DNA of 64,000 nt. It comes from Escherichia coli (GTDB lineage Bacteria; Pseudomonadota; Gammaproteobacteria; Enterobacterales; Enterobacteriaceae). Of this stretch, positions 39,881-62,125 are shown piece by piece (position 1 is the first letter of the stretch; every line of letters starts with the position of its first letter). The DNA is taken from NCBI RefSeq assembly GCF_001677475.2, contig NZ_CP015229.1; one strand, given 5' to 3'. The notes beneath the pieces are model-generated. The model searched no databases, was not told the DNA's origin, and saw only the letters and a program-made list of their open reading frames with translations. Both the position numbers and the translations under genes were made by a program.

Positions 39881-40261
39881 ATGACTGAACGCATAGAATT
39901 TGTTTTGCCTTACCCGCCGACGGTAAACACCTACTGGAGACGTCATGGCAATACGTATTTCATCTCGGAAGTCGGAAAGCGTTATCGCCGTGATGTGGCT
40001 CTAATTGTTCGCCAGCAGCGACTGAAATTAAACCTGTCCGGAAGGCTGGCGATAAAGATTATTGCAGAGCCACCGGATAAGCGCCGTCGTGACCTGGACA
40101 ATATCCTGAAAGCACCGCTGGATGCGTTGACGCATGCGGGACTGCTTATCGACGACGAGCAGTTTGATGAAATCAATATTGTGCGCGGTCAGCTTGTTCC
40201 TGGTGGTCGGCTGGGCGTGAAGATTGACGAAATAATGCATGACGGGCAGGTCCAAAAATGA
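39881..40261 (+). CDS. rusA: Holliday junction resolvase RusA
   Basis: 126 aa with PPTVNTYW and DKRRRDLDNILKAPLDALTHAGLLIDD motifs. Confidence 0.85.
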   Translation: MTERIEFVLPYPPTVNTYWRRHGNTYFISEVGKRYRRDVALIVRQQRLKLNLSGRLAIKIIAEPPDKRRRDLDNILKAPLDALTHAGLLIDDEQFDEINIVRGQLVPGGRLGVKIDEIMHDGQVQK

Positions 40262-41079
40262 AACTGGAAGATTTACCGAAATACTATTCCCCAAAATCGC
40301 CAGGCCTGACTGATGCATCCGCCTCGACGTCAAAAGATGCGCTGAGTATCACTGATGTGATGGCTGCGCAGGGTATGACACAGAACCGGGCTGAGATGGG
40401 ATTTTCTGCGTTCCTGGGGAAAATGGGCATTAGTATGAATGACAGGGCGCGGGCAACAGAATTACTGGCAGATTATGCATTAAGTCAGTGCGGTCGTGTG
40501 GCTGCGTTAAGAAAACTTCCGGCAGAGATAAAACCGGCAGTGATGCGCATTATGGCTTCGTACGCTTTTGAGGATTATGCCCGCAGCGCAGCGAGTAAAA
40601 AGCAATGCCCTTGTTGCCGAGGGGAAAAATTTATTGAAAGCGAGGTTTTTACAAACAAGGTTCAGTATCCGGATGGTAAGCCGCCAGTATGGGCAAAGTG
40701 TACAAAAGGCGTGTATCCGTCTTACTGGGAAGAATGGAAAAAAATCCGGGAGGTGGTGAAGGTTTCCTGTCCTGAATGTAAAGGGAAGGGAGAGATTTCG
40801 ACCGCCTGTAAAGACTGCCGTGGGCGTGGTGTAGCCATTCATCGTGAAGAGTCAGAAAAACGGGGTATGCCTGTTATCAGGGACTGCCAGCGTTGTGGCG
40901 GTCGTGGCTATGAAAGACAGCCGTCGACGGAGGCATTTAATGCCATATGTGAGGTGACAAATCAAATAACACGCGCGTCATGGGAAAAAACGGTTAAGCA
41001 ATTCTATGACACTCTGGTGGTTCGGTTTGACATTGAAGAGGCATGGGCGGAGCGGCAGTTAAAAAAGGTAACCAGATAA
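40258..41079 (+). CDS. late antiterminator Q (DnaJ-type zinc-finger class)
   Basis: 273 aa with CPECKGKGE..CKDCRGRG..CQRCGGRG. It lies upstream of a PR'/tR'-like region. Confidence 0.75.
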   Translation: MKLEDLPKYYSPKSPGLTDASASTSKDALSITDVMAAQGMTQNRAEMGFSAFLGKMGISMNDRARATELLADYALSQCGRVAALRKLPAEIKPAVMRIMASYAFEDYARSAASKKQCPCCRGEKFIESEVFTNKVQYPDGKPPVWAKCTKGVYPSYWEEWKKIREVVKVSCPECKGKGEISTACKDCRGRGVAIHREESEKRGMPVIRDCQRCGGRGYERQPSTEAFNAICEVTNQITRASWEKTVKQFYDTLVVRFDIEEAWAERQLKKVTR

Positions 41080-41084
41080 CAAGG

Positions 41085-41184
41085 TTGATTTTTCCGGAAT
41101 CTGTGGTAAATTTTCCCTAACGATGGGCGTTTTATGCCTGACGTTAGGATGATTTTTACAACCCGCCGTTGAGCGGGTTTTTTA
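41085..41184 (+). promoter_or_regulatory. PR'-like late promoter, qut-type hairpin and tR' terminator
   Basis: TTGATT-16 nt-TAAATT (41085-41112), the inverted repeat CCTAACG...CGTTAGG, then ACCCGC-CGTTGA-GCGGGT-T6 (41159-41184). Confidence 0.6.
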
Positions 41185-41305: not shown

Positions 41306-41503
41306 ATGCTAAAACAGCAGGATATGACCGAAACCGCCAGAGCCGTGTTTAATGAATTAAGCGTCACCGAACCGGCGACAGTCGGGGAGATTGCTCAGAA
41401 TACTTACCTTTCACGCGAACGCTGTCAGTTAATACTGACCCAGCTTGTTATGGCGGGTCTGGCAGATTATCAGTTCGGTTGTTACAGACGCCTTCCGCAG
41501 TGA
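41306..41503 (+). CDS. small winged-helix-like protein
   Basis: 65 aa with ATVGEIAQNTYLSRERCQLILTQLVMAGL. Confidence 0.5.
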   Translation: MLKQQDMTETARAVFNELSVTEPATVGEIAQNTYLSRERCQLILTQLVMAGLADYQFGCYRRLPQ

Positions 41504-41639
41504 AGGCTTTTTTATTTGTGGTAATGGGCGGCTGGTGGGTGTTAGCGGCACCTGTCAGTCATGCTCTTATGTGTTGATGAGAATTTACCTTTTGGGGCTA
41601 TAATTGAGCCAACCAATTGCTAATTAAAGTAAAATTATA

Positions 41640-42353
41640 ATGGCTGTTGTCTGTTCAGTTATCATGGTTTGCTCCCCAATTAATATTTTTCTTGAAAAGG
41701 ATAAGTTGTCACTTAAGCCCGGCTCAGTCGTTCTGGCCACCAAATGCATCAGGGAGCTGTTCCTTATGCATTATGGCAAAGTTAAAATTGTCGATATAAA
41801 CCATTCCATAGTAAGTCAATATCTGGAAAGTCAGCATAAGCTGACGAGGACTCGTCTGACTGACATTCCGCTTTACCTGTTCCTGGAACCCAACAATCCT
41901 GCGTTGGCTGCGGCTTTAATTACCAGCCAGAGATTTTACGGAGATACCACGGATATGTTTCTTATGATGGCCTGCCTGTCGCTGTTTGAATCAGATGAAC
42001 GGATGTCATTATTTTTAAGTGGATGTTTATCCAGTATAAGTGCCAAAGTCAGAGCGATAATTCAAACAGATATATCTGCAAACTGGATGCTCGGTGCGAT
42101 TGCGTTACGCCTGCATATGAGTGAGAGTTTGTTAAAGATAAAACTGAAAAATGAAGGGCATATGTTCAGTCGCTTGTTGCTGGAAGAGCGGATGCGGGTT
42201 GCTGTAAATATGTTATGTTCCCGGGATGGGTATGGACAGACAGTGGCAGAAAAATGCGGTTATTCAAGTAGGTCCTATTTTATCTCTGTATTTCACCGCT
42301 ATTATGGCTTCCCGCCAGACAGATATGTATCTATGCAAGGGCTTGATTTTTGA
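41640..42353 (+). CDS. AraC-family transcriptional regulator (prophage moron; Psr/PatE-like)
   Basis: 237 aa in a low-GC segment. The C-terminal AraC HTH pair reads MSESLLKIKLKNEGHMFSRLLLEERM...AEKCGYSSRSYFISVFHRYYGFPP. Confidence 0.8.
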   Translation: MAVVCSVIMVCSPINIFLEKDKLSLKPGSVVLATKCIRELFLMHYGKVKIVDINHSIVSQYLESQHKLTRTRLTDIPLYLFLEPNNPALAAALITSQRFYGDTTDMFLMMACLSLFESDERMSLFLSGCLSSISAKVRAIIQTDISANWMLGAIALRLHMSESLLKIKLKNEGHMFSRLLLEERMRVAVNMLCSRDGYGQTVAEKCGYSSRSYFISVFHRYYGFPPDRYVSMQGLDF

Positions 42354-42379
42354 TTTCATCTGATTATTATTTTCGGCCC

Positions 42380-42455
42380 GGCCCTTTAGCTCAGTGGTGA
42401 GAGCGAGCGACTCATAATCGCCAGGTCGCTGGTTCAAATCCAGCAAGGGCCACCA
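42380..42455 (+). tRNA. ileZ: tRNA with CAU anticodon (ileZ-type Ile2/Met-like)
   Basis: 76 nt. The acceptor is GGCCCTT/AAGGGCC, the anticodon loop is CTCATAA, the T loop is GGTTCAAATCC, and CCA is encoded. Confidence 0.85.
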
Positions 42456-42460
42456 CCTTA

Positions 42461-42541
42461 CCGCCATTAGCTCATCGGGAAGAGCAAATGACATGATAAC
42501 AGGGTTGTTGGTGCGGGGTTCGAGTCCTCGATGGCGGTCCA
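42461..42541 (+). tRNA. tRNA-like gene with aberrant anticodon arm (possible pseudo-tRNA)
   Basis: 81 nt. The acceptor (CCGCCAT/ATGGCGG), D arm (GCTC..GAGC), T arm (CGGGG-TTCGAGT-CCTCG) and CCA are all good. The anticodon region folds only as a wobble-rich stem with an 11-nt loop. Confidence 0.5.
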
Positions 42542-42554
42542 TTATCTGCATCAT

Positions 42555-42631
42555 GCGTTGTTAGCTCAGTCGGACAGAGCAATTGCCTTCTAAGCAATCG
42601 GTCACTGGTTCGAATCCAGTACAACGCGCCA
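42555..42631 (+). tRNA. argO: tRNA-Arg(UCU)
   Basis: 77 nt. The acceptor is GCGTTGT/ACAACGC, the anticodon loop is CTTCTAA, and CCA is encoded. Confidence 0.88.
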
Positions 42632-42804
42632 TACTTATTTTCCTGGCTCGCTTTTGCGGGCCTTTTTTGTATCCGCGCCACGCCCGGCGCATATCAAAAA
42701 CCACAGAGCCTTTCAGGGGTGAGCTTACGGGATGGTCAGTGTGACTTTCTCTGTGGGCTGGTCACCCCCGGGCGCAGGCTCACCCACTAAAAGGAAAAGT
42801 CACG

Positions 42805-43230
42805 ATGTTTGGTATTTTTAAAAAGAAAACCCGCAAGGCCATTACCGAAGTGAAGAAGATGGAGAACCGCGACGCAGTGGAGGCGACCGTCTGGGGTGCG
42901 TATTCCATTGCATACGCTGACGGCACCTGTGACGCGAAAGAAATCGCAGTGCTGGAGAAAACCATTGCAGCACTTCCTGCCTTTGCGCCGTTCTCCGGTG
43001 AGATTGCACAAATGAGTGCAAATATCCGCGCCCGTTATGAAGCGTCACCGCGTTCTGCCAATGCCGAAGCCCTTCGTCAGCTGGCTGATGTTGCCGGTAC
43101 TGATGATGCAGTTAATGTGCTGTGCCTGTGTCTGGATATCGCTGACCAGGACGGCATTGGCCCGGATGAAGAAGCGCAGCTCAAGAAAATTGCTCAGGCG
43201 CTGCAGTTGCCGCTGGAGCAGTACCTGTGA
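42805..43230 (+). CDS. TerB-like (tellurite-resistance TerB fold) moron protein
   Basis: 141 aa. ADGTCDAKEIAVLEKTI...DQDGIGPDEEAQLKKIAQAL is a duplicated TerB-type helical motif. Confidence 0.6.
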   Translation: MFGIFKKKTRKAITEVKKMENRDAVEATVWGAYSIAYADGTCDAKEIAVLEKTIAALPAFAPFSGEIAQMSANIRARYEASPRSANAEALRQLADVAGTDDAVNVLCLCLDIADQDGIGPDEEAQLKKIAQALQLPLEQYL

Positions 43231-43379
43231 AAAGTGCGCGCCTTGTGCTGGCTGCCATCCTGCTGTTTCTGGTAGTGGTGGTGGATTTTACCGGACGGCT
43301 GATGTCGGTACTGGCAGATGGTGTGCTGGTGGTGATGGTGCTGGTCGTGCTCCGGCCTTTACTGCGCAAATCTGAATAA
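43227..43379 (+). CDS. 50-aa two-TM membrane peptide
   Basis: The GTG overlaps the TerB-like stop. The product is [50 protein letters not shown]. It is below the track cutoff. Confidence 0.4.
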
Positions 43380-43491
43380 CACCACGCAAAAGGCATCTGC
43401 GGGTGCCTTTGATTGGGTGTTGTTTTTACGGGCCGCTGGTGGCCTTTTTTTGTTTCCATTACACAACGCCCGCATCTGCGAGGTGGGGGTT

Positions 43492-43707
43492 ATGAAATCC
43501 ATGGACAAAATTTCAACGGGCATTGCCTATGGCACCTCCGCAGGCAGTGCTGGCTACTGGTTTTTACAGTGGCTTGATCAGGTCAGTCCGTCACAGTGGG
43601 CTGCGATTGGTGTATTGGGGAGTCTGGTTCTGGGCTTCCTGACTTATCTGACAAATCTGTACTTCAAAATCAGAGAAGACAGAAGAAAGGCTGCGAGAGG
43701 TGAATAA
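43492..43707 (+). CDS. S: phage-21-type pinholin S
   Basis: 71 aa, [36 protein letters not shown]..., recognised as S21 with the dual-start motif MKSM. Confidence 0.9.
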
Positions 43708-44204
43708 TGCCTCCATCATTACGAAAAGCCGTTGCTGCTGCTATTGGTGGCGGGGCTATTGCTATAGCATCTGTGTTAATCACTGGCCCAGGTGGTAACG
43801 ATGGTCTGGAAGGTGTCAGTTACATACCATACAAAGATATTGTTGGTGTATGGACTGTATGCCACGGACACACCGGAAAAGACATCATGCTCGGTAAAAC
43901 GTATACCGAAGCAGAATGCAAAGCCCTCCTGAATAAAGACCTTTCCACGGTCGCCAGACAAATTAACCCGTACATCAAAGTCGATATACCGGAAACAATG
44001 CGCGGCGCTCTTTACTCGTTCGTTTACAACGTGGGTGCTGGCAATTTCAGAACATCGACTCTTCTTCGCAAAATAAACCAGGGTGATATCAAAGGCGCAT
44101 GTGATCAGCTACGGCGCTGGACATACGCTGGCGGTAAGCAATGGAAAGGGCTGATGACCCGTCGTGATATTGAGCGTGAAGTCTGTTTGTGGGGGCAGCA
44201 ATGA
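43707..44204 (+). CDS. R: SAR endolysin (R21-type lysozyme)
   Basis: 165 aa with the N-terminal SAR domain [16 protein letters not shown] and a T4-lysozyme-like catalytic region. Confidence 0.9.
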
Positions 44205-44665
44205 GCAGGGTAACCGCGATTATCTCCGCTCTGGTTATCTGCATCATTGTCTGCCTGTCGTGGGCGGTCAATCATTACCGTGATAACGCCATCGCCTACA
44301 AAGAACAGCGTGATAAAAAAGTCAGTGAGCTGAAGCAGGCAATCGCCACCATCGCTGACATGCAGCAGCGTCAGCGTGATGTTGCTGCGCTCGATGCAAA
44401 GTACTCGAGAGAATTAGCCAATGCGAAAGCTGAAAATGAAACTCTGCGCGCTGATGTTGCCGCTGGTCGTCGTCGGTTGCACATCAAAGCAGTCTGTCAG
44501 TCAGTGCGTGAAGCCACCACCGCCTCCGGCGTGGATAATGCAACCAGCCCCCGACTGGCAGACACCGCTGAACGGGATTATTTCACCCTCAGAGAGCGGC
44601 TGATGACGATGCAGATGCAACTGGAAGGGGCACAGGAGTATATCCGCACTCAGTGCATTAAGTAG
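44201..44665 (+). CDS. Rz: i-spanin Rz
   Basis: 154 aa from [17 protein letters not shown], with an N-terminal TM and a coiled coil. Confidence 0.85.
44421..44603 (+). CDS. Rz1: o-spanin Rz1 (embedded in Rz, +1 frame)
   Basis: 60 aa with lipobox LVVVGC and a proline-rich mature part. Confidence 0.8.
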
Positions 44666-45206: not shown

Positions 45207-45689
45207 ATGTCAGGACCTCCGAAAACCCCGCCACGCCTGCATTTGATACGAGGCAACCCCTCAAAGCGCCCCGTTAAAGACCACAAAAAAACCGCTAAAA
45301 AGGATGAAAAAGGTCTTCCTAAAATTCCGCAGCATTTAGGGGCTCAGGGGAAGTACTGGTTCAGGCGAATGGCGGAAGAGCTGAATGCGGAAGGGATCAT
45401 TTCTCAGCTTGATGCGCGTGCACTCGAGTTGCTGGTGGAAGCCTACACCGAATATCGGCATCACTGCGAAACACTCGATGTTGAGGGGTATACCTACCGC
45501 ACGGAAACGCAGAGCGGTGATGTACTGATTAAGGCGCACCCCGCGGCGGCAATGAAAGCGGATGCCTGGAAGCGGATCCGGGCAATGCTTGCAGAGTTTG
45601 GTATGTCACCGGCAAGCCGGGCTAAAGTAAATATCGCCGGACCGGATGATGTTGATCCGCTGGCGGAGCTTTTAAAAGCGAGAGACTGA
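45207..45689 (+). CDS. terS: terminase small subunit (P27-type)
   Basis: 160 aa, upstream of and overlapping the terL start. It is homologous in its C-terminal half to the satellite TerS. Confidence 0.8.
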   Translation: MSGPPKTPPRLHLIRGNPSKRPVKDHKKTAKKDEKGLPKIPQHLGAQGKYWFRRMAEELNAEGIISQLDARALELLVEAYTEYRHHCETLDVEGYTYRTETQSGDVLIKAHPAAAMKADAWKRIRAMLAEFGMSPASRAKVNIAGPDDVDPLAELLKARD

Positions 45690-46716
45690 TGGCAAAAGTG
45701 GCTGACGGGATCCGCTACGCCGAACGTGTTGTTGCAGGAGAAATTGTTGCTGGCGAATTTGTCCGCCTGGCCTGCCAGCGTTTTCTTGATGATCTGAAGT
45801 ACGGCGAAGAGCGGGGGATTTATTTCAGTGAACCCCGTGCGCAGCACATCCTGAATTTCTACAAATTTGTGCCTCATGTAAAAGGGGCGCTGGCAGGCCA
45901 GCCCATTGAGTTGATGGACTGGCATGTATTTATTCTCATTAATATTTTTGGTTTTGTCATTCCGCTGGTCAATGAAGAGACCGGGGAAGTTGTCATGCGC
46001 AGCGATGGCAGTGGACGTCCGGTGATGGTGCGCCGGTTCCGGACGGCGTACAACGAAGTCGCTCGTAAAAACGCAAAATCAACTCTGTCATCGGGTATCG
46101 GCCTGTATATGACGGGGGCAGATGGTGAAGGCGGAGCTGAGGTGTATTCAGCCGCAACCACGCGTGACCAGGCCAGAATCGTGTTTGAAGACGCCAAAAA
46201 TATGGTCAGAAAAGCCCGGTCGACACTCGGGCGGTTGTTTGATTTCAACAAGCTGGCGATTTACCAGGAGCAGAGCGCATCAAAATTTGAACCGCTTTCT
46301 TCGGATGCAAACAACCTAGACGGTCTGAACATCCACTGCGCCATTATTGATGAGCTGCATGCACATAAAACCCGCGACGTGTGGGACGTTCTGGAAACGG
46401 CAACCGGTGCCCGTCTGCAGTCCCTGTTATTTGGTATCACCACGGCGGGCTTTAACAAGGAAGGGATTTGTTACGAGCAACGCGATTACGCCATCAAGGT
46501 ATTGCGAGGCTATAACAGCGACGTGGAGGGCGCGGTAAAAGACGACTCCTACTTTGCGATTATTTACACGCTCGATGAGGGAGATGATCCGTTTGATGAA
46601 ACGGTCTGGCAGAAAGCGAATCCGGGCCTGGGCATCTGTAAACGCTGGGATGATCTGCGTCGTCTGGCGAAAAAAGCGAAGGAGCAGGTCTCGGCGCGGG
46701 TGAATTTTTTCACGAA
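45689..46716 (+). pseudogene. terL: prophage terminase large subunit, 5' (ATPase) fragment, interrupted by satellite
   Basis: The fragment aligns with the satellite TerL up to ...RVNFFTK. The frame then reads 55 unrelated codons of island DNA. Confidence 0.88.
46710..46716. repeat. satellite attL core TCACGAA
   Basis: The same 7-mer occurs at 62119-62125, with 12/14 identity when extended (AATTTTTTCACGAA vs AATATTCTCACGAA). Confidence 0.75.
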
Positions 46717-46845
46717 GAAAGTAACATCACGCCGTAACAACAGTGCAGTCTGTCCTGATTTTTTTAGTAACCAAATGAAAGAAAAAGATTTTTTCTTGTT
46801 CGTCGTTTTTGTTTTTTCTGGATGGTTCTGGCTGTTTTCATCATT

Positions 46846-46868
46846 TGTGTATTGCACTGTGTATTGCA
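46846..46868 (+). repeat. tandem TGTGTATTGCA x2 (putative integrase arm-type sites, left end)
   Basis: Copies lie at 46846-46856 and 46858-46868. A similar pair, GTGTATTGC x2, lies at 62023-62043 with the same 12-nt register. Confidence 0.6.
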
Positions 46869-46887
46869 AAAACGGGTTATAAATCAC

Positions 46888-48111
46888 ATGGCGCTAAACA
46901 AACTGAGCGATAAAAAACTTCGTTCCCTGCTTGGACGCAGGAGTGAGAGACAGGAAACCATCGCTGATGGTAACGGGCTTTCGGTACGGGTCAGTAAATA
47001 CGGATGTGTTAGTTTTGTTTTCTTTTACAGACTGGCGGGAAGGGGAACCGCGCCCATCTGGCTGACACTTGGAAAATATCCTGATCTGAGTCTCAAATCA
47101 GCGAGAGAGATGCGCGATCAGTGTCGAACCTGGCTTGCGGAGGGCAGAGATCCACGGATTCAGATAAAAATTGAACGGGAAGCCACCTTGCAACCTGTTA
47201 CCGTTCGTGAGGCACTTGAATACTGGCTTGATAATTATGCAATGGATAAGCGTAGGGGAGCAGAACATATCAGGCAGTGCTTTGGTAAACATATTTATCC
47301 GGTGATTGGTCATGTACCACTTAGTGATTGCTCTATATCTATGTGGATTAAGTGTTTTGACAAAATAAAAAAAGTAGCACCTGTACAGGCCGGAGCTTTG
47401 TTGCGTATATCAAAACAGGCGCTTAAATTTTGTAGGGTAAGAAAATACGCGATTAGTCATGAAATTGATGATCTTGAGGTCTGTGATGTGGGAAAAAAGT
47501 CTGCGCGAAGAAGCAGGGTTTTAACAGATGATGAAATCAGAGATTTATGGCGAAGTATTAATACTGATTATGACAATCACGAATTATCATATGAAAACCG
47601 AATTATTTTACGTTTCCTGGTAGTTTTTGGTTGCCGACTGTCAGAAGTATTACTGTCGTCCTGGGGAGAGTGGGATTTTGATAAGAAATTATGGCGCGTT
47701 CCCGCTGAACATAGCAAAAATGGCAGGGAAATAATCAGACCGATTCCTGATGGCATGTTTAACTGGTTAGTTACGTTAAAAAAAATAACAGGTAACAAAG
47801 AAAATGTGATTGGGTTTGATATGCGTCAGTGTACGGCAAGCGTAACTATCGGTAAGACATGGAAAAGGATGAAACACTCGGAGAAATGGACGGCGCATGA
47901 TATGCGAAGAGTGTTTGCCACAAAACTAAGTGATCATGGTTTTGAACATAATGTGGTTGAACAGTTGCTTGGGCACACATTAGGCGGTGTTGCCGGGGTT
48001 TATAACAGAAGCCAGTATATGGACAGAAAAAAAGAAGCTATGAACTGGTGGTACGACTATCTGAATAAGCAAATTAGTGGTGACGGTAATGATTCAAATA
48101 GTTACGCGTGA
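46888..48111 (+). CDS. int: P4-type tyrosine integrase of the satellite
   Basis: 407 aa from MALNKLSDKKLRSLLG. The C-terminal catalytic region reads GCRLSEVL...HDMRRVFATKL...LGHTLGGVAGVYNR. Confidence 0.88.
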   Translation: MALNKLSDKKLRSLLGRRSERQETIADGNGLSVRVSKYGCVSFVFFYRLAGRGTAPIWLTLGKYPDLSLKSAREMRDQCRTWLAEGRDPRIQIKIEREATLQPVTVREALEYWLDNYAMDKRRGAEHIRQCFGKHIYPVIGHVPLSDCSISMWIKCFDKIKKVAPVQAGALLRISKQALKFCRVRKYAISHEIDDLEVCDVGKKSARRSRVLTDDEIRDLWRSINTDYDNHELSYENRIILRFLVVFGCRLSEVLLSSWGEWDFDKKLWRVPAEHSKNGREIIRPIPDGMFNWLVTLKKITGNKENVIGFDMRQCTASVTIGKTWKRMKHSEKWTAHDMRRVFATKLSDHGFEHNVVEQLLGHTLGGVAGVYNRSQYMDRKKEAMNWWYDYLNKQISGDGNDSNSYA

Positions 48112-48310
48112 AGAACTTGAAAATGATAAAACAATCGACAGGATGATTAAGGAAGATGAATGTGCATGGTTAACCGCTCTTGGCAGGAGACACAGATCGT
48201 TACTTGAAAAGGAAGGAAAATTTCCACGAAAAATATGTATTGGTCCACAAACAAAAGTCTGGCGCTTATCTGAGGTGCTGGAATGGGTAAAAGGTGAATG
48301 GAAACCCTGA
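48089..48310 (+). CDS. alpA: AlpA-family HTH regulator/excisionase 1
   Basis: RMIKEDECAWLTALGRRHRSLLEKEGKFPRKICIGPQTKVWRLSEVLEWV fits the AlpA pattern. The start is uncertain (48077, 48089 or 48143). Confidence 0.7.
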   Translation: MIQIVTREELENDKTIDRMIKEDECAWLTALGRRHRSLLEKEGKFPRKICIGPQTKVWRLSEVLEWVKGEWKP

Positions 48311-48373
48311 GCTAAATTAAATGAGATATAATCAACCCGTCTTTTGGCGGGTTTTTTTATAGGTGATATTTTT

Positions 48374-48652
48374 ATGCAAAAATTTATTTATCCTACACCC
48401 GAAGAACGCATTCAGATTCTGAAAGATCATGGCGAACCGTATGATCGCCGTATACGCGAACATGAGTGTGCCAATCGTACCGGGCTTTCAAGAAGCAGAC
48501 GTTGGGTACTTGAACAGGAGGGAGCATTTCCTGCTCGTGCTCATTTAGGGAAAGTGTCTGTTTCCTGGTTGCTCTCTGATGTGCTCTGGTGGGTTATGCA
48601 TCCGCCAGGAGTAAAGGAAGTAAACAGCCCATACAAAAACGCCAATAAGTAA
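48374..48652 (+). CDS. AlpA-family HTH regulator 2
   Basis: 92 aa with IREHECANRTGLSRSRRWVLEQEGAFPARAHLGKVSVSWLLSDVLWWV. Confidence 0.7.
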   Translation: MQKFIYPTPEERIQILKDHGEPYDRRIREHECANRTGLSRSRRWVLEQEGAFPARAHLGKVSVSWLLSDVLWWVMHPPGVKEVNSPYKNANK

Positions 48653-48662
48653 TTACCGACAA

Positions 48663-48690
48663 CCCCGCACCACGCAATGCGGGGTTTTTT
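48663..48690 (+). terminator. rho-independent terminator
   Basis: CCCCGCA-CCACGCAA-TGCGGGG-T6. Confidence 0.8.
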
Positions 48691-48709
48691 GTATGTGAGG
48701 TAGAAAGTG

Positions 48710-49303
48710 ATGAATAAAAATATTGCCGTGACGGGCAAGGGTGACGCACGTCATGTGAAAAAATTCTGTGATATTCGTGATCTGGTCGTTCTGCGCTTTG
48801 ATAGTGTGAACGTTCGCGTGGTGTATCTGAACGGCGATCCGTGGTTTGTTGGCGCTGATGTGTGTGCGGCGCTGGAAATTAGCAACGTTACCGATGCTGT
48901 TTCAGTTCTGGATAACGATGAGGTAATGACCCTAGCTTTAACCGAGGGTCATTCAGGTAAGCGTGGTGGTGCCAGAAGTTGGAATGTTGTATCAGAATCA
49001 GGTTTTTACAAGTTGATCGCCAGAAGTCGCAAAGCTGTTAATCCTGGCACGTTCGCCCATCGTTTCAGTAATTGGGTATTCAGAAATGTGATACCGGGTA
49101 TCAGAAAAACGGGGGCTTATGGTATCCCGTGGGGCGCATTACAGGATTTTTCCCGCCGCAAAGAGCAATATCAGGTAAGTGCCAGCGAGAAGGGGAGGGA
49201 GCTACAGGCATGTAAGCGCAAAAAGCGTGAGCTAGAGGAAGAAGAAAAAAGGCTGATACGTGAATATCAGCCTGAGTTTTACTTTGGTGAGCGTATTCAG
49301 TAA
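48710..49303 (+). CDS. BRO-N domain (antirepressor-like) protein
   Basis: 197 aa with VRVVYLNGDPWFVGADVCAALEISN...SESGFYKLIARSRKA...FSNWVFRNVIPGIRKTGAY. Confidence 0.75.
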   Translation: MNKNIAVTGKGDARHVKKFCDIRDLVVLRFDSVNVRVVYLNGDPWFVGADVCAALEISNVTDAVSVLDNDEVMTLALTEGHSGKRGGARSWNVVSESGFYKLIARSRKAVNPGTFAHRFSNWVFRNVIPGIRKTGAYGIPWGALQDFSRRKEQYQVSASEKGRELQACKRKKRELEEEEKRLIREYQPEFYFGERIQ

Positions 49304-49461
49304 CCACACGCGGTGCTGATTATACGGTACATCGTGTTAACCGAGAAGCTACCCACCAGCAAGGCAAAATCTTCTGCTAAAAAATGACATATGGCCAGTC
49401 GTCTGGAAAGCATGAAATTTTACAAAAATGGAAAATGAAGATTTTTATTGTGCTGGTGGGT

Positions 49462-49492
49462 AAAAACAAAAAGCGCCCCGTTGCCGGAGCGC
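49462..49492 (-). terminator. minus-strand rho-independent terminator
   Basis: The minus strand reads GCGCTCCG-GCAA-CGGGGCGC followed by TTTTTGTTTTT. Confidence 0.75.
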
Positions 49493-49588
49493 CCTTGCGA
49501 ACAATTAACCTACTGCGCAAAAAAATGAATCTGTGCAGGGGGATTATATCAACCGTGTGACGAAGCGCCACAATTGCCGGATAACAGG

Positions 49589-49617
49589 CAAAGAAAAGGC
49601 CACCCGCTACGGTGGCC
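49589..49617 (-). terminator. minus-strand terminator/attenuator
   Basis: The minus strand reads GGCCACC-GTAGCG-GGTGGCC followed by TTTTCTTTG. Confidence 0.6.
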
Positions 49618-55608: not shown

Positions 55609-56754
55609 ATGAAGAAATTAATCGAACTCCGCCAGCAAAAAACCGCCCTGAAAAACCAGATGCGATCCCTGCTGGAAAAAGCCGACAGTGAAAACCGCAG
55701 CCTGAACGATGACGAAGGCAAACAGTTTGATGAACTGCGTGCAAAAGCCGATTCCCTCGACACAGAAATCTCCCGTCTTGAAGCTGTTGCGGATGAAGAA
55801 CGTAACCAGCCAGGTGTTTGCGTCGAAGAGAAAATTACCAAAGACGAACTGCGCTCTTACATTCTGACCGGGGAAACCCGCAACCTGTCCGGCAGTGTTC
55901 CGGCTGATGGTGGTTATACGGTTATCCCGGAACTGAACAGAGAAATTATGCGTCAGCTTTCTGATGAATCGGTGATGCGTAAAATCTGTACTGTTAAAAC
56001 CATTCACAGCAATGAATTTAAGCAACTGGTTTCTGCCGGGGGCGCGGTCGTTGAACACGGTGAAGAAGGCACTACACGTAACCAGACGGCAACCCCAAAA
56101 CTGAATGAAGTCAGTATCCGCCTGTATCCGATCTACGCTTACCCGAAAACCACTCAGGAAATTATCGATTTTTCCGAAGTCGATATTATGGGCTGGTTAT
56201 CTTCTGAAATTGGCGACACTTTCGTTGATACCGAAGAAACGGATCTGGTTTCTGGTGATGGCGAGAAAAAAGCTAAAGGTTTCCTGGCTTTTCCGCGCAC
56301 TGAGGATAACGACAAAACCCGTCCTTTCGGTACGCTCCAGACGAAAAAAGTTACTGGCAGTCTTAGCGCCGACATGCTGATTGACCTGAAATTTACGCTG
56401 CGCAATAAGTACCGCAAAAAAGCTGTATGGGTGATGAACTCAAATACAGCCGCCTCCGCACAAAAACTGAAAAATGCCACTGGTGATTACATCTGGCGCG
56501 ATCGTTTACAGGCTGGTGATCCTGATTCTCTGCTGGGGCTTCCGGTTGAATATCTGGAATTTATGCCGGACGGTGTGATTGCAGTAGGTGACTTTAAGCG
56601 CGGTTATTTCATCGTTGACCATGAAACCGGTACGCGTACCCGTCCGGATTTCAGCGAACCTGGATTCATTAACATCTATACCCAGAAATATCTGGGCGGT
56701 GGTGTGGTGGATTCGAACGCCATCAAGATTCTGGAAATTCAGGCTGGCAAGTAA
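55609..56754 (+). CDS. HK97-family major capsid protein (with N-terminal delta/scaffold domain)
   Basis: 381 aa with an N-terminal coiled coil and then a capsid fold. The gene order capsid-protease-portal supports the call. Confidence 0.85.
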   Translation: MKKLIELRQQKTALKNQMRSLLEKADSENRSLNDDEGKQFDELRAKADSLDTEISRLEAVADEERNQPGVCVEEKITKDELRSYILTGETRNLSGSVPADGGYTVIPELNREIMRQLSDESVMRKICTVKTIHSNEFKQLVSAGGAVVEHGEEGTTRNQTATPKLNEVSIRLYPIYAYPKTTQEIIDFSEVDIMGWLSSEIGDTFVDTEETDLVSGDGEKKAKGFLAFPRTEDNDKTRPFGTLQTKKVTGSLSADMLIDLKFTLRNKYRKKAVWVMNSNTAASAQKLKNATGDYIWRDRLQAGDPDSLLGLPVEYLEFMPDGVIAVGDFKRGYFIVDHETGTRTRPDFSEPGFINIYTQKYLGGGVVDSNAIKILEIQAGK

Positions 56755-56760
56755 TGAGCA

Positions 56761-56785
56761 AAGGGGGCTTCGGCCTCCTTTTTCA
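56761..56785 (+). terminator. hairpin plus T-run after capsid gene (attenuator)
   Basis: AAGGGGGC-TTCG-GCCTCCTT followed by TTT. Confidence 0.55.
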
Positions 56786-56803
56786 GCTTTATGGAGTACA
56801 CCG

Positions 56804-57364
56804 ATGAAAAACACCGATTTTGAAATCCGTACATCTGAACTGACCGCCAGCGATAAAAAACTGGTGGGTTATGCCGTTCGCTGGAACAGCCTTTCAGAAA
56901 TTATTTGGGACGAATTCCGCGAACAGTTCACGCCGGGGGCTTTTGCTGACTATCTGGCGGCGGGTAATGATGTGCGCTGCCTGTATGAGCATGACTATAC
57001 CCGACTGCTGGGGCGCACCAAATCCGGAACACTGGTACTGACTGAGGACAACACCGGGCTACGTTTTGAACTGACACCGCCTGATACCCAGCTTGGAAAA
57101 GATGTGCTTACGCTGGTGGAGCGTGGCGACATTACAGGAATGAGCTTTGGCTTTCGCGCATTATGCGAAGAGTGGAATATCGCGCAAAAACCGTATCTGC
57201 GCACTGTTACCGCCGCAGAACTCCGTGAAATCACGATAACGTCGATGCCTGCTTATCCCGAATCTGGCGTGGAGATTGCCCACCGTTCGTTGTTTGCACA
57301 GCACCCTGAATTACGCCCGGCAGGAAATAATCGTCATCGCTGGGCTGAACTGGCGGGGTTGTGA
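56804..57364 (+). CDS. HK97-family prohead protease
   Basis: 186 aa from MKNTDFEIRTSELTASDKKLVGYAVRWNS...YEHD...GMSFGF. Confidence 0.85.
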   Translation: MKNTDFEIRTSELTASDKKLVGYAVRWNSLSEIIWDEFREQFTPGAFADYLAAGNDVRCLYEHDYTRLLGRTKSGTLVLTEDNTGLRFELTPPDTQLGKDVLTLVERGDITGMSFGFRALCEEWNIAQKPYLRTVTAAELREITITSMPAYPESGVEIAHRSLFAQHPELRPAGNNRHRWAELAGL

Positions 57365-57365
57365 T

Positions 57366-58580
57366 ATGTGGTGGCCTTTTAGTCGTAAAAAAAGCGATCT
57401 GCGTAACCTGTCCATTGATGATTTTCTGGCGCTGTCCGGCGTACCGAATACCGGATCCGGAGAATATGTTTCTGCCGGGACGGCTGAATCATTGCCTGCT
57501 GTGATGAACGCGGTTTCTGTCATCGCTGAGGCGGTGGCCACGATGCCGTGTTATCTGTATCTGGTACGCAATGATAAGGGCAGGGAGGCGCGGGAGTGGC
57601 TGGACAGTCATCCGGTCGATATTCTGCTGAATGAGCAGCCTAATTCGTGCCAGACACCTTACCAGTTTAAACGCACAATGATGCGTCACTGCCTGCTGAA
57701 CGGTAACGCCTATGCGGTTATTGAGTGGGGGCGGGACGGTCAGCCAAAATCACTTCATCCTTATGCGCCGGGGTGTGTTGTACCGGAACGCACTGGCGCG
57801 CACAAATACCGCTATACCATCACCGAACCCTATACAGGAACGGTGCGCACGTATTTACAGGAAGAAGTCCTGCATCTCCGCTATGCCTCGGATGATGGCT
57901 TTCTGGGACGTTCCCCCGTCACGATTTGCCGTGAGGCGCTGGGGCTTGGCCTTGCTCAACAGCGTCACGGAGCCAGCATTATGAAAGATGGCATGATGGC
58001 GGCAGGGATTATCACGTCAGGCGAATGGCTGGACGGTGTGAAAGGTAAACAGGCATTAGACGCCCTGGAACGCTACAAGGGGGCGAAAAATGCCGGAAAA
58101 ACGCCAATCCTTGAAGGGGGCATGGATTACAAGCAACTGGGGATGAGTAACCAGGATGCGGAATGGCTGGCCTCCCGTCGCTTCTCCATTGAAGACATCG
58201 CCCGGATGTTCAACGTGTCGCCGATTTTTCTTCAGGAATACAGCAACAGCACCTACAGCAATTTCAGTGAGGCAAGCCGCGCGTTTCTGACCATGACAAT
58301 GCGCCCATGGCTGGCGAACTTCGAACAGCAAATTAAGGCCGCTTTGCTGGTGGCTTCTCCCGTACCTGGTACCCGTTATCTGGTTGAGTTTGATTCAGCC
58401 GATTTACTGCGCGCTACTCCAACCGAGCGTTACGCCACGTATGAGAAAGGGATTAAGAACGGGATCATGAATCCGAACGAAGCCCGCGAACGTGAGGGGA
58501 TGCCGCCGCGTGAAGGTGGCGACGAATTCAGCCAGGCATGGAAGCAGACGGTGGAAATTAAAGGTGAAAAAGATGAGTGA
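57366..58580 (+). CDS. HK97-family portal protein
   Basis: 404 aa from MWWPFSRKKS. It is homologous to the prophage portal at 63049. Confidence 0.85.
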   Translation: MWWPFSRKKSDLRNLSIDDFLALSGVPNTGSGEYVSAGTAESLPAVMNAVSVIAEAVATMPCYLYLVRNDKGREAREWLDSHPVDILLNEQPNSCQTPYQFKRTMMRHCLLNGNAYAVIEWGRDGQPKSLHPYAPGCVVPERTGAHKYRYTITEPYTGTVRTYLQEEVLHLRYASDDGFLGRSPVTICREALGLGLAQQRHGASIMKDGMMAAGIITSGEWLDGVKGKQALDALERYKGAKNAGKTPILEGGMDYKQLGMSNQDAEWLASRRFSIEDIARMFNVSPIFLQEYSNSTYSNFSEASRAFLTMTMRPWLANFEQQIKAALLVASPVPGTRYLVEFDSADLLRATPTERYATYEKGIKNGIMNPNEAREREGMPPREGGDEFSQAWKQTVEIKGEKDE

Positions 58581-58872
58581 AGAAAAAATTACACCTGATG
58601 AAGTCAGGGCACATCTTCGCCTTGATGACTTTTCCGGAGAGGGCGAACTTCTGAAAATGTATACCGATGCGGCGCTGGAAGCCTGCCAGAAGCATATCGG
58701 GAAACGTTTTGAAGACGGCCTGGAATTTACCCCGGCAATACGTGTTGGTTGCCTGATGTACATTGCTTTCCTGTACGAGAACAGGGAAGCGGTTTCACCT
58801 GTGGAGCAGTCTGAACTGCCTATGGCTATTTCTGCGCTCTGGTCGGTTTATCGTGATGTGGGGGTGTACTGA
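58573..58872 (+). CDS. gp6-like head-tail connector
   Basis: 99 aa from MSEEKITPDEVRAHLRLDD. Confidence 0.7.
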   Translation: MSEEKITPDEVRAHLRLDDFSGEGELLKMYTDAALEACQKHIGKRFEDGLEFTPAIRVGCLMYIAFLYENREAVSPVEQSELPMAISALWSVYRDVGVY

Positions 58873-59312
58873 TGCCGTGGCAACCATTAAGGCGATGCAC
58901 TGAGCCGGGCTGTAATAAGCGCGTGAAGTCCGGCAAGTGTGAAGAGCACAGGCGGGCTGCATGGCGTGCAGAGGATGCCAGACGGGGACACCGCCGCGCG
59001 CGCGGGTATTCCCGACAGTGGGACAAATACCGCGCCCTGTACCTGAGCAAAAACCCGTTATGCGTGCGTTGTCTGGCTAAGGGGATTTATACGCCAGCTC
59101 TTGTGGTGGATCACATCATTCCCATCAATGGCGGCGGTGATGTTCTCTTCTGGCCTGAGTGGAACCACCAGGCATTGTGCCAGACGTGCCACAACCGTAA
59201 GACGACACGGGAAGACCCAGCCACGAAAGCGAACCGTAAGGCGGGCATGTATCGCGAGCAGGAAGAACGGGCGGCACACCGTAACGACTGGATGTATGGC
59301 GATGATGACTGA
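58872..59312 (+). CDS. HNH endonuclease (packaging-associated)
   Basis: 146 aa with CVRC...DHIIPINGGG...CQTCHNRKT. Confidence 0.85.
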   Translation: MPWQPLRRCTEPGCNKRVKSGKCEEHRRAAWRAEDARRGHRRARGYSRQWDKYRALYLSKNPLCVRCLAKGIYTPALVVDHIIPINGGGDVLFWPEWNHQALCQTCHNRKTTREDPATKANRKAGMYREQEERAAHRNDWMYGDDD

Positions 59313-59600
59313 ACATGAGCAAAACAGGCTGATACGTGGACTGATAAGGCAACGTGACTTATGGAAGACACAGGAGACAGGGCACAAAGCCAACAGGACA
59401 GGGCGCACAGAACGCACCACAGCGAAGCGATTAACCGACCGTGACCGCGAGGTCATGGAATGTTTTCGCAATCGCTGGTGAGGCTGTCAGAGGGGGTGGG
59501 GGAGGTTTTCAGGACGAAACCGTCCCTGCCGGACACCGACCGCCTCCTCAAATTTTTGTGCACGGTAATTTTTTTGAAAATAATTGGGCGAAAAAAGAAC

Positions 59601-59957
59601 ATGGCAAGACCACCAAAAGCCCCCGCTTACCTGGATGAAATCGCGGTCAGGCAGTGGAAGGAAAAATCGCGCCAGCTTTCCGTGCGGGAAGACCTTACCC
59701 CCGCCGACTGGAGCAATCTGGAACTGTATTGTGTTAACTACTCCATATACCGCAAAGCCGTCGAAGACCTTGCGACGCGCGGGTTCAGCATTGTTAACAG
59801 TCAGGGCAGCGAGAGCAGAAACCCCGCCCTGAGCGCAAAGGCTGACGCGGAAAGAATAATGATCAAAATGGCTTCTTTGCTGGGTTTTGACCCGGTAAGC
59901 CGCCGCAGAAATCCACCGGAAACAGAGGAAGAGGACGAGCTTGACCGCCTGGCATGA
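59601..59957 (+). CDS. terS: terminase small subunit (P27-type)
   Basis: 118 aa from MARPPKAPAYLDEIAVRQW. Confidence 0.8.
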   Translation: MARPPKAPAYLDEIAVRQWKEKSRQLSVREDLTPADWSNLELYCVNYSIYRKAVEDLATRGFSIVNSQGSESRNPALSAKADAERIMIKMASLLGFDPVSRRRNPPETEEEDELDRLA

Positions 59958-61602
59958 GTACGCAGAAGGCGTAAAAAACGGCAAAATTACGGCCTGTAAA
60001 CGACTGAAACAGGCCGTTAAACGGTATTTTTCTGACCTTGAAAACCCCCTTTACACGTTCGAGCCGGAGGTCGTGGAGCGGTTTATTGCCTTTTCCAGGG
60101 TGTGTCCGCACGTAAAAGGCGCAATGCGCGGTAGCCCCATTGAGCTGGAGCCGTGGCAGCAGTTCGCCTTTGCGTGCATCCTGGGCTTTAAGGTTAAGGC
60201 CACCGGACGGCGCAAATACACCAGCGCATTCATTGAAGTACCGCGTAAAAATGCCAAATCCACGGTCGCCGCTATCCTGGCTAACTGGTTTCTGGTTATG
60301 GAAAACGGGCAGCAGGATATTTACACCGCCGCCGTGAGTCGTGATCAGGCGCGGATCGTGTTTGATGATGCGCGTCAGATGTGCCTTTTATCCCGACCGT
60401 TACGAAAGCGGGTAAATATTCAGGCACACAAGGTGATACACCCGAAAACCAACAGCCTGTTAAAGCCACTGGCAGCAAAAGCGGCAACCATTGAAGGTAC
60501 AAACCCGAGTCTTGCTATTGTGGATGAATATCACCTGCACCCTGACAACGGGGTTTATTCCGCGCTTGAACTGGGAATGGGGGCGCGTCCGGAGGGGTTA
60601 TTATTTGCCATCACCACATCGGGGAGCAACGTTGTTTCAGCCTGTAAACAACACTACGACTATTGCTGCCAGATACTGGATGGTGAAGAGGTGAACGAAT
60701 CCATGTTCGTGCTGATTTACGAGCTGGATGATGAAAGCGAGGTTGACGATCCGGCGATGTGGATAAAGGCGAATCCCAATATCGATGTTTCCGTCGATCG
60801 TGAAAAACTGGCCTCAACCATCCAGAAAGCGCGGGGTATTCCGTCGCAGTGGGTGGAGATGCTCACCAAGCGATTCAATATCTGGTGTCAGGGGGCTACG
60901 CCGTGGATGGGTAACGGTGCATGGGCGGAGTGCGCCGGAACGTTCGCGGAGGCGGATTTATACGGGCAGGAGTGCTACGCGGGGCTGGACTTATCATCAA
61001 CCAGCGATATTTCCAGCGTGTGCTATGCCTTTCCGGTCGGTAAAAAGATTATGCTGGTTTCCCGTCACTATCTGCCGGAATTTCAGCTACAGAACCCCGC
61101 CAATAAAAACCGCGCCATCTATCGCCAGTGGGTAAAGGCGGGCTGGATACGCACAACACCGGGTGACTGCATTGATTATGACCGTATCCGTGATGACATC
61201 ATGGCGGATGCAGAGAATTTCAATATCAGGCTGGTGGGCTTCGATACATGGAACGCCACGCACCTGAGGACGCAGCTACAGGGCGCAGGATTTGAGGTGG
61301 AGCCGTTCCCGCAAACATACCTTCGTTTCAGTCCGGCGGCGAAATCGTTCGAAGTTTTTGTTAACCGGAAGGTGATTGTGCATCGTGGTGATCCGGTGCT
61401 GGCCTGGTCAATGAGTAATGTTGTGATGCAGAGTGACGCGAACGCCAATATCAAGCCGAACAAGAAAAAATCATCCAACAAGATAGACCCGAGCGTTGCG
61501 GCGCTGATGGCGTTTGGCACATTCCAGGCAGAGCATGAGGAATTTGCATTCGATATGAGCGACAGCCACAAAGAGCGGCTTGCGGCGTTTGATGGTGTGT
61601 AA
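59941..61602 (+). CDS. terL: terminase large subunit (intact, satellite copy)
   Basis: 553 aa, colinear with both fragments of the prophage terL. Confidence 0.88.
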   Translation: MTAWHEYAEGVKNGKITACKRLKQAVKRYFSDLENPLYTFEPEVVERFIAFSRVCPHVKGAMRGSPIELEPWQQFAFACILGFKVKATGRRKYTSAFIEVPRKNAKSTVAAILANWFLVMENGQQDIYTAAVSRDQARIVFDDARQMCLLSRPLRKRVNIQAHKVIHPKTNSLLKPLAAKAATIEGTNPSLAIVDEYHLHPDNGVYSALELGMGARPEGLLFAITTSGSNVVSACKQHYDYCCQILDGEEVNESMFVLIYELDDESEVDDPAMWIKANPNIDVSVDREKLASTIQKARGIPSQWVEMLTKRFNIWCQGATPWMGNGAWAECAGTFAEADLYGQECYAGLDLSSTSDISSVCYAFPVGKKIMLVSRHYLPEFQLQNPANKNRAIYRQWVKAGWIRTTPGDCIDYDRIRDDIMADAENFNIRLVGFDTWNATHLRTQLQGAGFEVEPFPQTYLRFSPAAKSFEVFVNRKVIVHRGDPVLAWSMSNVVMQSDANANIKPNKKKSSNKIDPSVAALMAFGTFQAEHEEFAFDMSDSHKERLAAFDGV

Positions 61603-61682
61603 CGGAATGGATGAGAGAGGACAATGCTCATTTAATGGAATAAATTTTCAGTATTACCGGCACCCACTTTCAGGGATGTTTT

Positions 61683-61838
61683 TGCGGGTTATTTGAGGGG
61701 TGTTTGCGGGTTATTTTGAATGTCTTGCGGGTTACATTCTGGCTGATATTTAAATACGTTGTTTTTTTAACGTATTGATATTAAAGAGTAAAAGATAATT
61801 AGCACGCGAAGATAACCCGCTAACCCGCATAACCCGCA
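61683..61838. repeat. TGCGGGTTA array: 3 direct (21-22 nt phasing) plus 3 inverted tandem copies around an AT-rich palindrome
   Basis: Direct copies lie at 61683, 61705 and 61726. Inverted TAACCCGC copies lie at 61813, 61821 and 61830. The palindrome AATACGTT-N8-AACGTATT lies at 61752-61776. Confidence 0.85.
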
Positions 61839-62022
61839 CTGTTTTGTATATATATACGAAAAATTGCATTCAGGGGGGATCGAAATTTCTACTGCCTCTT
61901 ATCTCTTTGAGTGCTCACCTCGTCAGATTGTTACACACAAGAAATAAAAAATGCTTCGCGATGGTAGGTCGAATCACTGTATCAAAAAACGGTGTGTATC
62001 AGCATTAAAACAATACAGATAC

Positions 62023-62043
62023 GTGTATTGCGCTGTGTATTGC
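62023..62043 (+). repeat. tandem GTGTATTGC x2 (putative integrase arm sites, right end)
   Basis: This pair matches the left-end pair at 46846-46868. Confidence 0.6.
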
Positions 62044-62118
62044 TCGATGATTTATAAAGACTGTTTTTTCATGTTAAACGATTGATATACAGACGATTTT
62101 AAAAAGCTTGAAATATTC

Positions 62119-62125
62119 TCACGAA
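62119..62125. repeat. satellite attR core TCACGAA
   Basis: See the attL core. Confidence 0.75.

Follow-up and report, generated by a model that had tools for sequence, protein, structure and literature searches.

What is the small two-gene unit that lies between the tRNA genes and the holin gene of a lambdoid prophage in Escherichia coli, and what might it contribute to the phage that carries it? We addressed this question for a stretch of 64,000 nucleotides from assembly GCF_001677475.2 (contig NZ_CP015229.1), referred to here as the window, with positions counted from its first letter. The unit consists of the following two genes:

42805-43230, plus strand: tciA, 141 amino acids, ATG start, encoding an acidic, predicted cytoplasmic protein of the TerB fold
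43227-43379, plus strand: tciB, 50 amino acids, GTG start, encoding a DUF3927 protein, a predicted two-helix inner-membrane peptide

Judged by its sequence, the locus represents, in a lambdoid prophage, the tciA-tciB module of phage P1, which is already known and annotated. An initial annotation of the window, made from the letters alone, missed this identity of the pair as a named P1 module. Compared with tciA-tciB-tciC of P1 (P1_gp074-076), the window pair shows 86% identity for TciA (141 of 141 residues aligned) and 45% for TciB, the gene order and the overlapping stop and start are the same, tRNA genes are adjacent in both cases, and both pairs belong to PHROG 632 and PHROG 1470. Among P1-like elements, the tciABC region is variable and often lost (PMC9603915). 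Our literature search, which also covered DUF3927 and TerB, found no functional study of tciA or tciB.

Profile, fold, and motif all place TciA in the TerB superfamily (COG3793). It passes the Pfam TerB model PF05099 with 32.4 bits against a gathering score of 24.4 (E = 1.2e-7), a partial match in two stretches of which the best covers residues 11-57 only, and it matches phrog_632 over its full length (E = 4e-65). The protein carries two "aDG...E" helix-loop-helix repeats, D39-G40...E46 and D114-x-D116-G117...E122, and the acidic residues D23, E26, D39, E46, E66, D95, and E122 are invariant among phage homologs of 30% to 40% identity. An AlphaFold2 model built with 24 homologs has six helices at a predicted local distance difference test (pLDDT) score of 87.6; it matches TerB-like structures and has the all-helical architecture of a TerB-like fold. 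Residues 21-141 have an isoelectric point (pI) of 4.2, and the N-terminal residues, about 20 in number, form a basic tail with a pI of 10.3. A fold search of BFVD with TciA returned only unnamed viral homologs, and NCBIfam gave a weak match to DjlA residues 126-206 (E = 0.06).

TciB matches Pfam DUF3927 (E = 5e-13) and phrog_1470, which is labeled "TciB-like" (2e-23); these were its only matches in Pfam and PHROGs, and no holin family in either collection was among them. Valine and leucine make up 48% of the peptide. Its two hydrophobic stretches span approximately residues 6-19 and 25-42, and its ends are basic; this hydropathy and charge distribution fits a putative two-helix hairpin. The conserved pattern of TciB reads DFT(G/S)...S..(A/S)DG...(W/R)P, and a protein identical to that of the window occurs on 508 contigs. 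The GTG of tciB (43227-43229) overlaps the TGA of tciA (43228-43230), and a GGAG motif lies 8 nucleotides upstream of the GTG.

The two genes are almost always found together. In 95 full-length tciA loci, drawn from genomes and from IMG/VR, a match to the tciB hidden Markov model lies directly downstream of tciA in 93; the exceptions are one locus with a divergent two-helix peptide in the place of tciB (L015) and one with a truncated tciB (L077). Sampled from the other side, 78 of 80 loci found through tciB have tciA directly upstream, the remaining two being a contig end and an orphan tciB (L157). In every locus inspected, the stop of tciA and the start of tciB overlap or abut (GTGA, ATGA, TGATG, or TAATG). 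Both genes are under strong purifying selection: the ratio of nonsynonymous to synonymous substitution rates (dN/dS) is 0.02-0.08 for tciA and 0.08-0.38 for tciB, measured against diverged alleles in which synonymous change is saturated (dS above 1.3 in most comparisons, 0.74 at the lowest). Since dN/dS is low and adjacency is nearly constant, the tciA-tciB pair is real, beyond chance. In L077 (5380-5620), a rearrangement cuts tciB after about 16 codons, and the orphan in L157 (2413-2656) has a TTG start and stands without tciA. A natural in-frame TciA-TciB fusion, P0051, occurs on one contig only.

These results bear out what the initial annotation had claimed for the pair itself. It had described a 141-residue protein with two TerB-type repeats, and the Pfam match, the fold, and the aDG...E motifs support that description, so that the TerB assignment survives both profile and fold tests; its account of a stop codon overlapping the GTG of a 50-residue, Val/Leu-rich peptide with two transmembrane segments was likewise correct. 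It had also made its interpretation depend on conservation of the small gene with the TerB-like gene, which is what the two surveys, the coupling, and the purifying selection document.

The portable cassette to which the pair belongs, about 780 bp in length, opens with a 130-nucleotide leader, continues with tciA and tciB, and closes with a hairpin and an intrinsic terminator. We define this unit by its edges, because the points at which homology to other loci breaks sharply cluster within 42640-42679 upstream of the pair and within 43450-43459 downstream of it. Beyond the two genes, its parts and its left boundary are as follows:

42645-42669, plus strand: intrinsic terminator after tRNA-Arg(UCU), with a 7-bp stem containing 6 GC pairs and a T-run; left edge of the cassette
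42675-42804, plus strand: conserved 130-nucleotide leader, including the ribosome-binding site AAGGA
43376-43423, plus strand: nested hairpin after tciB (inner stem 43389-43410), seen in the RNA fold
43430-43452, plus strand: intrinsic terminator after the hairpin, with a GC stem at 43430-43445 followed by T7; right edge of the cassette

The RNA fold of 43376-43495 has a free energy of -47.1 kcal/mol (z = -3.05). Like a moron, the cassette is a discrete insert, and its own terminator travels with it. The leader is conserved across 38 distinct variants from prophages of Escherichia, Citrobacter, Enterobacter, and Pseudescherichia. A consensus scan of 42663-42804 found no sigma-70-like promoter, and manual reading yielded only a weak candidate (TTGTAT, 17 nucleotides, CATATC). 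We also considered the leader as a structured RNA or riboswitch and regard this idea as unsupported: it has no match in Rfam, its minimum free energy z score is -1.84, and the covariation term is -0.17. RNAalifold found double changes in 3 of 38 pairs among the 38 variants, which are too similar to one another to exclude a conserved structure. Because terminators flank the cassette and no promoter-like site was found, tciA and tciB in this prophage would have no promoter of their own and would be transcribed only by read-through of Q-modified polymerase, late and together with the lysis genes.

The pair is far from rare. RefSeq annotates it as "tellurite resistance TerB family protein" followed by "DUF3927 family protein" in 380 of 5,426 complete E. 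coli genomes, 164 of which cover at least 80% of the query, and it occurs in hundreds of temperate phages and in some virulent ones. TciA-like genes were found in 100 phage records and, by tblastn on 72,556 plasmids, in 799 plasmid records. The latter are nearly all nonmobilizable and, among the matches listed, mostly 90-115 kb in size; we take the plasmids carrying TciA to be phage-plasmids. One phage record, PP818812.1 ("Actinobacillus phage vB_Apl-pPE4"), encodes a TciA 99.3% identical to that of the window in a cassette of 95% nucleotide identity; by its sequence it looks like an E. coli-type lambdoid phage, and its host label may deserve a check.

We surveyed the surroundings of the pair by scanning 20 neighbor genes with Pfam and by classifying about 94 loci with reference proteins. 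In lambdoid prophages, the cassette stands immediately upstream of the holin gene in about three-quarters of the loci classified. This placement is seen with the S21-type holin PF04971 and with the unrelated system of holin_8 plus holin_3_7, together with three Q families, and it is independent of the presence of tRNAs, a Dam-like methylase, or an AraC-like gene. Other settings are quite different. In P1 and P1-like elements, the pair belongs to the C1-controlled ban operon, between tRNA genes; in other prophages its neighbor is a replication gene of the gpA type, a gene for a Dmt methylase, or one for a CI-like repressor. The virulent N4-like phages Pollock and FSL SP-058 encode a TciA of 30-35% identity followed by an unmistakable TciB, located among early/middle genes near a dUTPase gene and an N4 gp24-like gene. 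In the Erwinia jumbo phage Caitlin, the gene for a TciA of 42% identity stands just after tRNA genes, and the one after it encodes a two-helix peptide with VWPLIK at its C terminus. The TerB-like genes of Pseudomonas phage PMBT3 and Vibrio phage BUCT194 have no obvious TciB gene beside them.

As a separate observation, tciA-like genes adjoin tRNA genes in unrelated phages. In P1 (L001, 1616-3276), tRNA Asn and Thr genes lie upstream of tciA and an Ile2-like gene lies downstream; in Caitlin (L102, 509-1726), tRNA Trp and Cys genes lie upstream of the tciA-like gene; and in two Enterobacter prophages (L006, 6756-6832; L016, 6575-6651), a tRNA Arg-UCU gene lies downstream of it.

In the window, the cassette is set between the late antiterminator gene Q and the lysis genes, among the following features:

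40258-41079, plus strand: Q late antiterminator, 273 amino acids (Pfam Antiterm PF03589, 8e-52)
41306-41503, plus strand: 65-amino-acid open reading frame (ORF) with weak winged-helix similarity (TrmB/MarR, E about 1e-3)
41640-42353, plus strand: AraC-family regulator, 237 amino acids (NCBIfam YdeO 7e-30, below the cut-off; phrog_1450)
42380-42631, plus strand: tRNA block, two called tRNAs with an uncalled tRNA-like element between them
42380-42455, plus strand: tRNA(CAU), called by ARAGORN and Rfam
42555-42631, plus strand: tRNA-Arg(UCU), called by ARAGORN and Rfam
43492-43707, plus strand: S21-type class II holin (Pfam Phage_holin_2_1, PF04971, 2e-35)
43707-44204, plus strand: lysozyme (Pfam Phage_lysozyme, 3e-45)
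44189-44665, plus strand: Rz (Pfam Phage_lysis, 2e-49)

The C-terminal half of Q carries the signal of a DnaJ-type CXXCXGXG zinc finger (PF00684, 32.1 bits, just below the cut-off of 32.7). The ORF at 41306-41503 is bracketed by intrinsic terminators at 41160-41179 and 41490-41507, and its homolog in E. coli GB089 is annotated as hypothetical. The regulator at 41640-42353, to which a strong promoter-like site (10/12) at 41577-41604 belongs, has its nearest match in acid-resistance regulators of the YdeO/GadX type and may be one of the prophage-encoded AraC-like regulators known from enterohemorrhagic E. coli. The tRNA block (42343-42669) looks like a separate transcription unit, with a promoter-like site found by the promoter scan directly before tRNA(CAU), at 42343-42370, and an intrinsic terminator at its end.

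Regarding these surroundings, the initial annotation had spoken of a tRNA trio. Two of the three genes are confirmed; the middle element is called by neither ARAGORN nor Rfam here, and its counterpart in the homologous GB089 locus appears in RefSeq as "tRNA-OTHER". The hairpins that it had noted after the pair are present, as the nested hairpin and the terminator at 43430-43445. It was also right about the absence of stx-like genes as far as the interval between Q and the holin is concerned, which holds a small winged helix-turn-helix (HTH) ORF, the AraC/YdeO-like regulator, the tRNAs, and tciA-tciB. Its recognition of the interval as a cargo slot of Stx phages agrees with a related E. coli prophage in which stx1d A/B separate Q from a class II holin; over the 14-kb stretch compared, the two prophages are largely homologous (60% covered at 93.5% identity). 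The coexpression with lysis genes that it proposed is plausible, given that no sigma-70-like promoter was found between the terminator at 42645-42662 and the ATG of tciA. The roles that it suggested, in lysis timing, superinfection, or host fitness, are speculative, and of these a lysis-specific role and a host-fitness role are weakened by the evidence considered below.

A second insertion lies further downstream in the same prophage, whose large terminase gene (terL) is split (45689-62855) by an insert of about 15.2 kb:

45689 to about 46880: N-terminal part of terL, with the ATPase domain and nuclease profile positions 2-64
46822-48111: tyrosine integrase that opens the insert
50652-50739, plus strand: C4 antisense RNA (Rfam RF01695, 72.3 bits against a gathering score of 45)
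55609-56754: HK97-type capsid protein
57276-58580: portal protein
59941-61602: the insert's own complete TerL
62130-62855: C-terminal part of terL, with nuclease profile positions 64-283

The insert also carries a Bro-N gene, an AAA_25 primase/helicase-like gene, and a single-stranded DNA-binding protein (SSB) gene. By its gene content it looks like a capsid-forming satellite resembling phage-inducible chromosomal islands (PICIs), or a small phage, integrated inside terL, and the C4 RNA is suggestive of immunity or antirepressor control there by a circuit of the P1/P7 type. The Stx1d prophage of E. coli 2014C-3075 is annotated alike, with an incomplete terL followed by integrase, HTH, and BRO-N genes.

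What, then, would the tciA-tciB pair do? The account that we prefer combines a P1-type module, a membrane complex of its two products, late expression, and guarding of the membrane; taken as a whole, it comes near to being probable without quite reaching that grade. In this scenario, both ends of TciB would face the cytoplasm, and TciB would hold TciA against the cytoplasmic membrane from the inside, an arrangement that would mirror the pairing of TerB with the membrane protein TerC reported in a passage of PMC11003894 that cites Turkovicova 2016. Q-modified polymerase would read through the flanking terminators and deliver both products late in lytic growth. The pair might then help, as an accessory, to condition or guard the infected cell's inner membrane while lytic development proceeds, a role drawn by analogy that we put forward as possible and tentative. 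Guarding could operate through homeostasis of cations or of the proton motive force or, alternatively, through resistance to outside agents that depolarize the membrane, for example superinfecting phages or pore-forming colicins, and that would otherwise trigger the holin early. Such a role would fit the position of the cassette before lysis genes of the pinholin/signal-anchor-release (SAR)-endolysin type, which fire on depolarization. The common denominator of the known occurrences argues for lytic development rather than lysogenic conversion, since virulent phages have retained the two genes, and tciA, tciB, and tciC are transcribed in lytic infection by P1vir (preprint 10.64898/2025.12.28.696737). 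We infer that tciAB is neither a tellurite-resistance determinant nor a toxin.

Several points weigh against this account or against parts of it. In a genome-wide CRISPR interference (CRISPRi) screen, tciA, tciB, and tciC of P1 were all nonessential (PMC10695390). A nuclear magnetic resonance structure of Klebsiella pneumoniae TerB exists (PMC7371120), and our TciA profile, searched against all PDB chain sequences, found no TerB entry at E <= 1, so that the link of TciA to solved TerB structures is seen only at the level of the fold. The phage inhibition and resistance to pore-forming colicins conferred by ter operons (PMC7371120) transfer weakly to tciAB, given the distant relation and the lack of ter genes seen among its neighbors. 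PADLOC-DB v2 contained no match to TciA or TciB at E <= 1; on this negative result we also rejected a known defense system as a candidate. With regard to expression, a nonconsensus or activator-dependent promoter in the leader would escape a simple consensus scan. The position of the cassette ahead of two unrelated holin types could still reflect a link to lysis. Finally, the model of the natural fusion P0051 has block mean pLDDT values of 43-71 across its TciB part and says nothing about docking.

A bolder form of the membrane-guarding account would make TciA-TciB a widespread, constrained complex of lambdoid, P1-like, P2-like, N4-like, and jumbo phages, in which a TerB-fold sensor of cations or of a partner, held on a mini-hairpin, protects the membrane potential, with the leader as a new regulatory element. 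Such a complex might exclude superinfecting DNA or colicins, or it might hijack a host TerC-family exporter, in either case so that the lysis clock is not tripped early. We consider this larger claim doubtful.

An alternative directed at a membrane or metal-homeostasis protein of the host, or at its division, would have TciA act as a TerB mimic whose target is a TerC-family exporter or some other envelope protein of the host; TciB would serve as an adaptor, and the outcome would be altered cation flux or blocked division during infection. The TerB-TerC partnership, as that passage relates it, is a precedent for such a contact. The extreme constraint on TciA would be expected of a protein that has to fit a conserved host target, and its conserved acidic residues suggest binding of cations or of a partner. 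The P1 annotation does list inhibition of cell division, to which the name tci refers, but by homology only, and the P1 tci gene names themselves rest explicitly on homology. Moreover, knock-down in P1 caused no growth defect. We therefore view host takeover as unlikely.

The placement of the cassette invites another explanation, namely, that TciB is an antiholin or other holin-modulating partner, gated by TciA, that tunes when the downstream holin fires. Its immediate proximity to the holin gene in most classified lambdoid loci, across two unrelated holin systems and three Q families, is what such a regulator would predict, as are the class-II-holin-like architecture of TciB with its basic C terminus and the cotranscription with lysis genes that we deduce. 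However, P1 keeps the pair in the ban operon, away from its lysis genes, the N4-like phages and the jumbo phage place it in early/middle regions, and other prophages have it beside gpA, Dmt, or CI-like repressor genes. TciB matches no holin family in Pfam or PHROGs, and cargo in general tends to gather between Q and the holin gene, where the related prophage has stx1d. Because of these nonlysis contexts, we rank a lysis-specific role below a general role in the lytic cycle and deem it quite unlikely.

Lysogenic conversion, in which the pair would equip the lysogen with resistance to tellurite, oxidative stress, colicins, or incoming phages, would suit a classic moron slot bracketed by terminators, the frequent occurrence on phage-plasmids, a conserved leader that could hide a regulated promoter, and the ter-operon phenotypes known in the wider family. 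It is difficult to reconcile with virulent phages, which carry the pair without lysogeny, and with P1, in which the operon is repressed by C1. Nothing resembling a promoter emerged from the consensus scan, no further ter gene came to light in the neighborhood, one terB by itself has been considered too little for resistance (PMC8421299), and PADLOC gave no match. This explanation is, in our judgment, improbable. A toxin-regulator pair of the abortive-infection or addiction kind, in which TciB depolarizes the membrane unless TciA restrains it, would draw on the small size and hydrophobicity of TciB, on a tight translational coupling that fixes stoichiometry, and on abundance in phage-plasmids that need stable maintenance, but it is highly improbable in view of an orphan tciB, a tciA with a truncated tciB, the lack of similarity to known toxin families or defense systems, and a presence in virulent phages that is ill-suited to addiction.

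The window locus itself is ordinary: both the cassette and the cargo slot that it occupies were known before. What is new here is the near-absolute pairing of the two genes, the strength of selection on them, the boundaries of the cassette with its conserved leader, the pre-holin placement across unrelated holins, and the retention of the pair by virulent phages. Few cargo units of phage-plasmids and enterobacterial prophages are as common as tciAB, and the names that databases give it rest on remote homology alone. That TciA stands outside ter operons and is carried by virulent phages should temper resistance-gene calls in surveys of prophages and plasmids. The unit is small, at 780 bp and two genes, and constrained, yet dispensable for laboratory plaque formation. 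Its function, once known, could reveal a general role of the lytic cycle at the inner membrane and perhaps a biochemical role for the TerB fold.

Among known systems, the ter operon (terZABCDE(F)) is the one that the database names evoke. TciA shares the Pfam family and the fold class of ter-operon TerB, and in both cases a soluble TerB-type protein is paired with a membrane component. The two proteins are distant in sequence, however, and the presumed partner of TciA is a 50-residue hairpin, whereas that of TerB is the multi-pass TerC. No other ter gene was found in the window interval or among the 20 neighbors scanned with Pfam; the classification of about 94 loci could not itself detect such genes. 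Because no ter neighbors were seen in the loci examined and the TciA profile reached no solved TerB at E <= 1, TciA is, from what its sequence and neighborhood indicate, not a canonical ter-operon TerB, and the label "tellurite/colicin resistance" is unsupported.

A second comparison concerns the N-terminal region of DjlA and YebE/DUF533, membrane-anchored proteins with a TerB-like domain (Pfam clan TerB). There, a transmembrane segment is joined to a cytoplasmic TerB-like domain, and TciB plus TciA would correspond to a split version of that arrangement. Unlike these proteins, tciAB encodes two polypeptides and no J domain, and since the similarity is not significant, the likeness is an architectural analogy only.

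With stx1, stx2, and the other morons of lambdoid and Stx phages, the cassette shares the slot between Q and the holin gene, the tRNA genes upstream, and a terminator bounding the insert. The proteins are unrelated, no secreted toxin is encoded, tciAB has no recognizable promoter of its own, and the cassette, in contrast to those morons, is confined neither to this slot nor to temperate phages.

The closest relative remains the P1 module, from which the window pair departs in three respects. The 35-residue tciC is absent from the window, where hairpins and a terminator follow tciB; by phmmer, TciC of P1 was found only in P1 and in the P1-like locus L010. The pair of the window lies in what appears to be a Q-dependent late region before the holin gene, whereas that of P1 is part of the C1-controlled ban operon. 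Finally, the conserved 130-nucleotide leader and the terminator belonging to the cassette, which P1 lacks, are present here.

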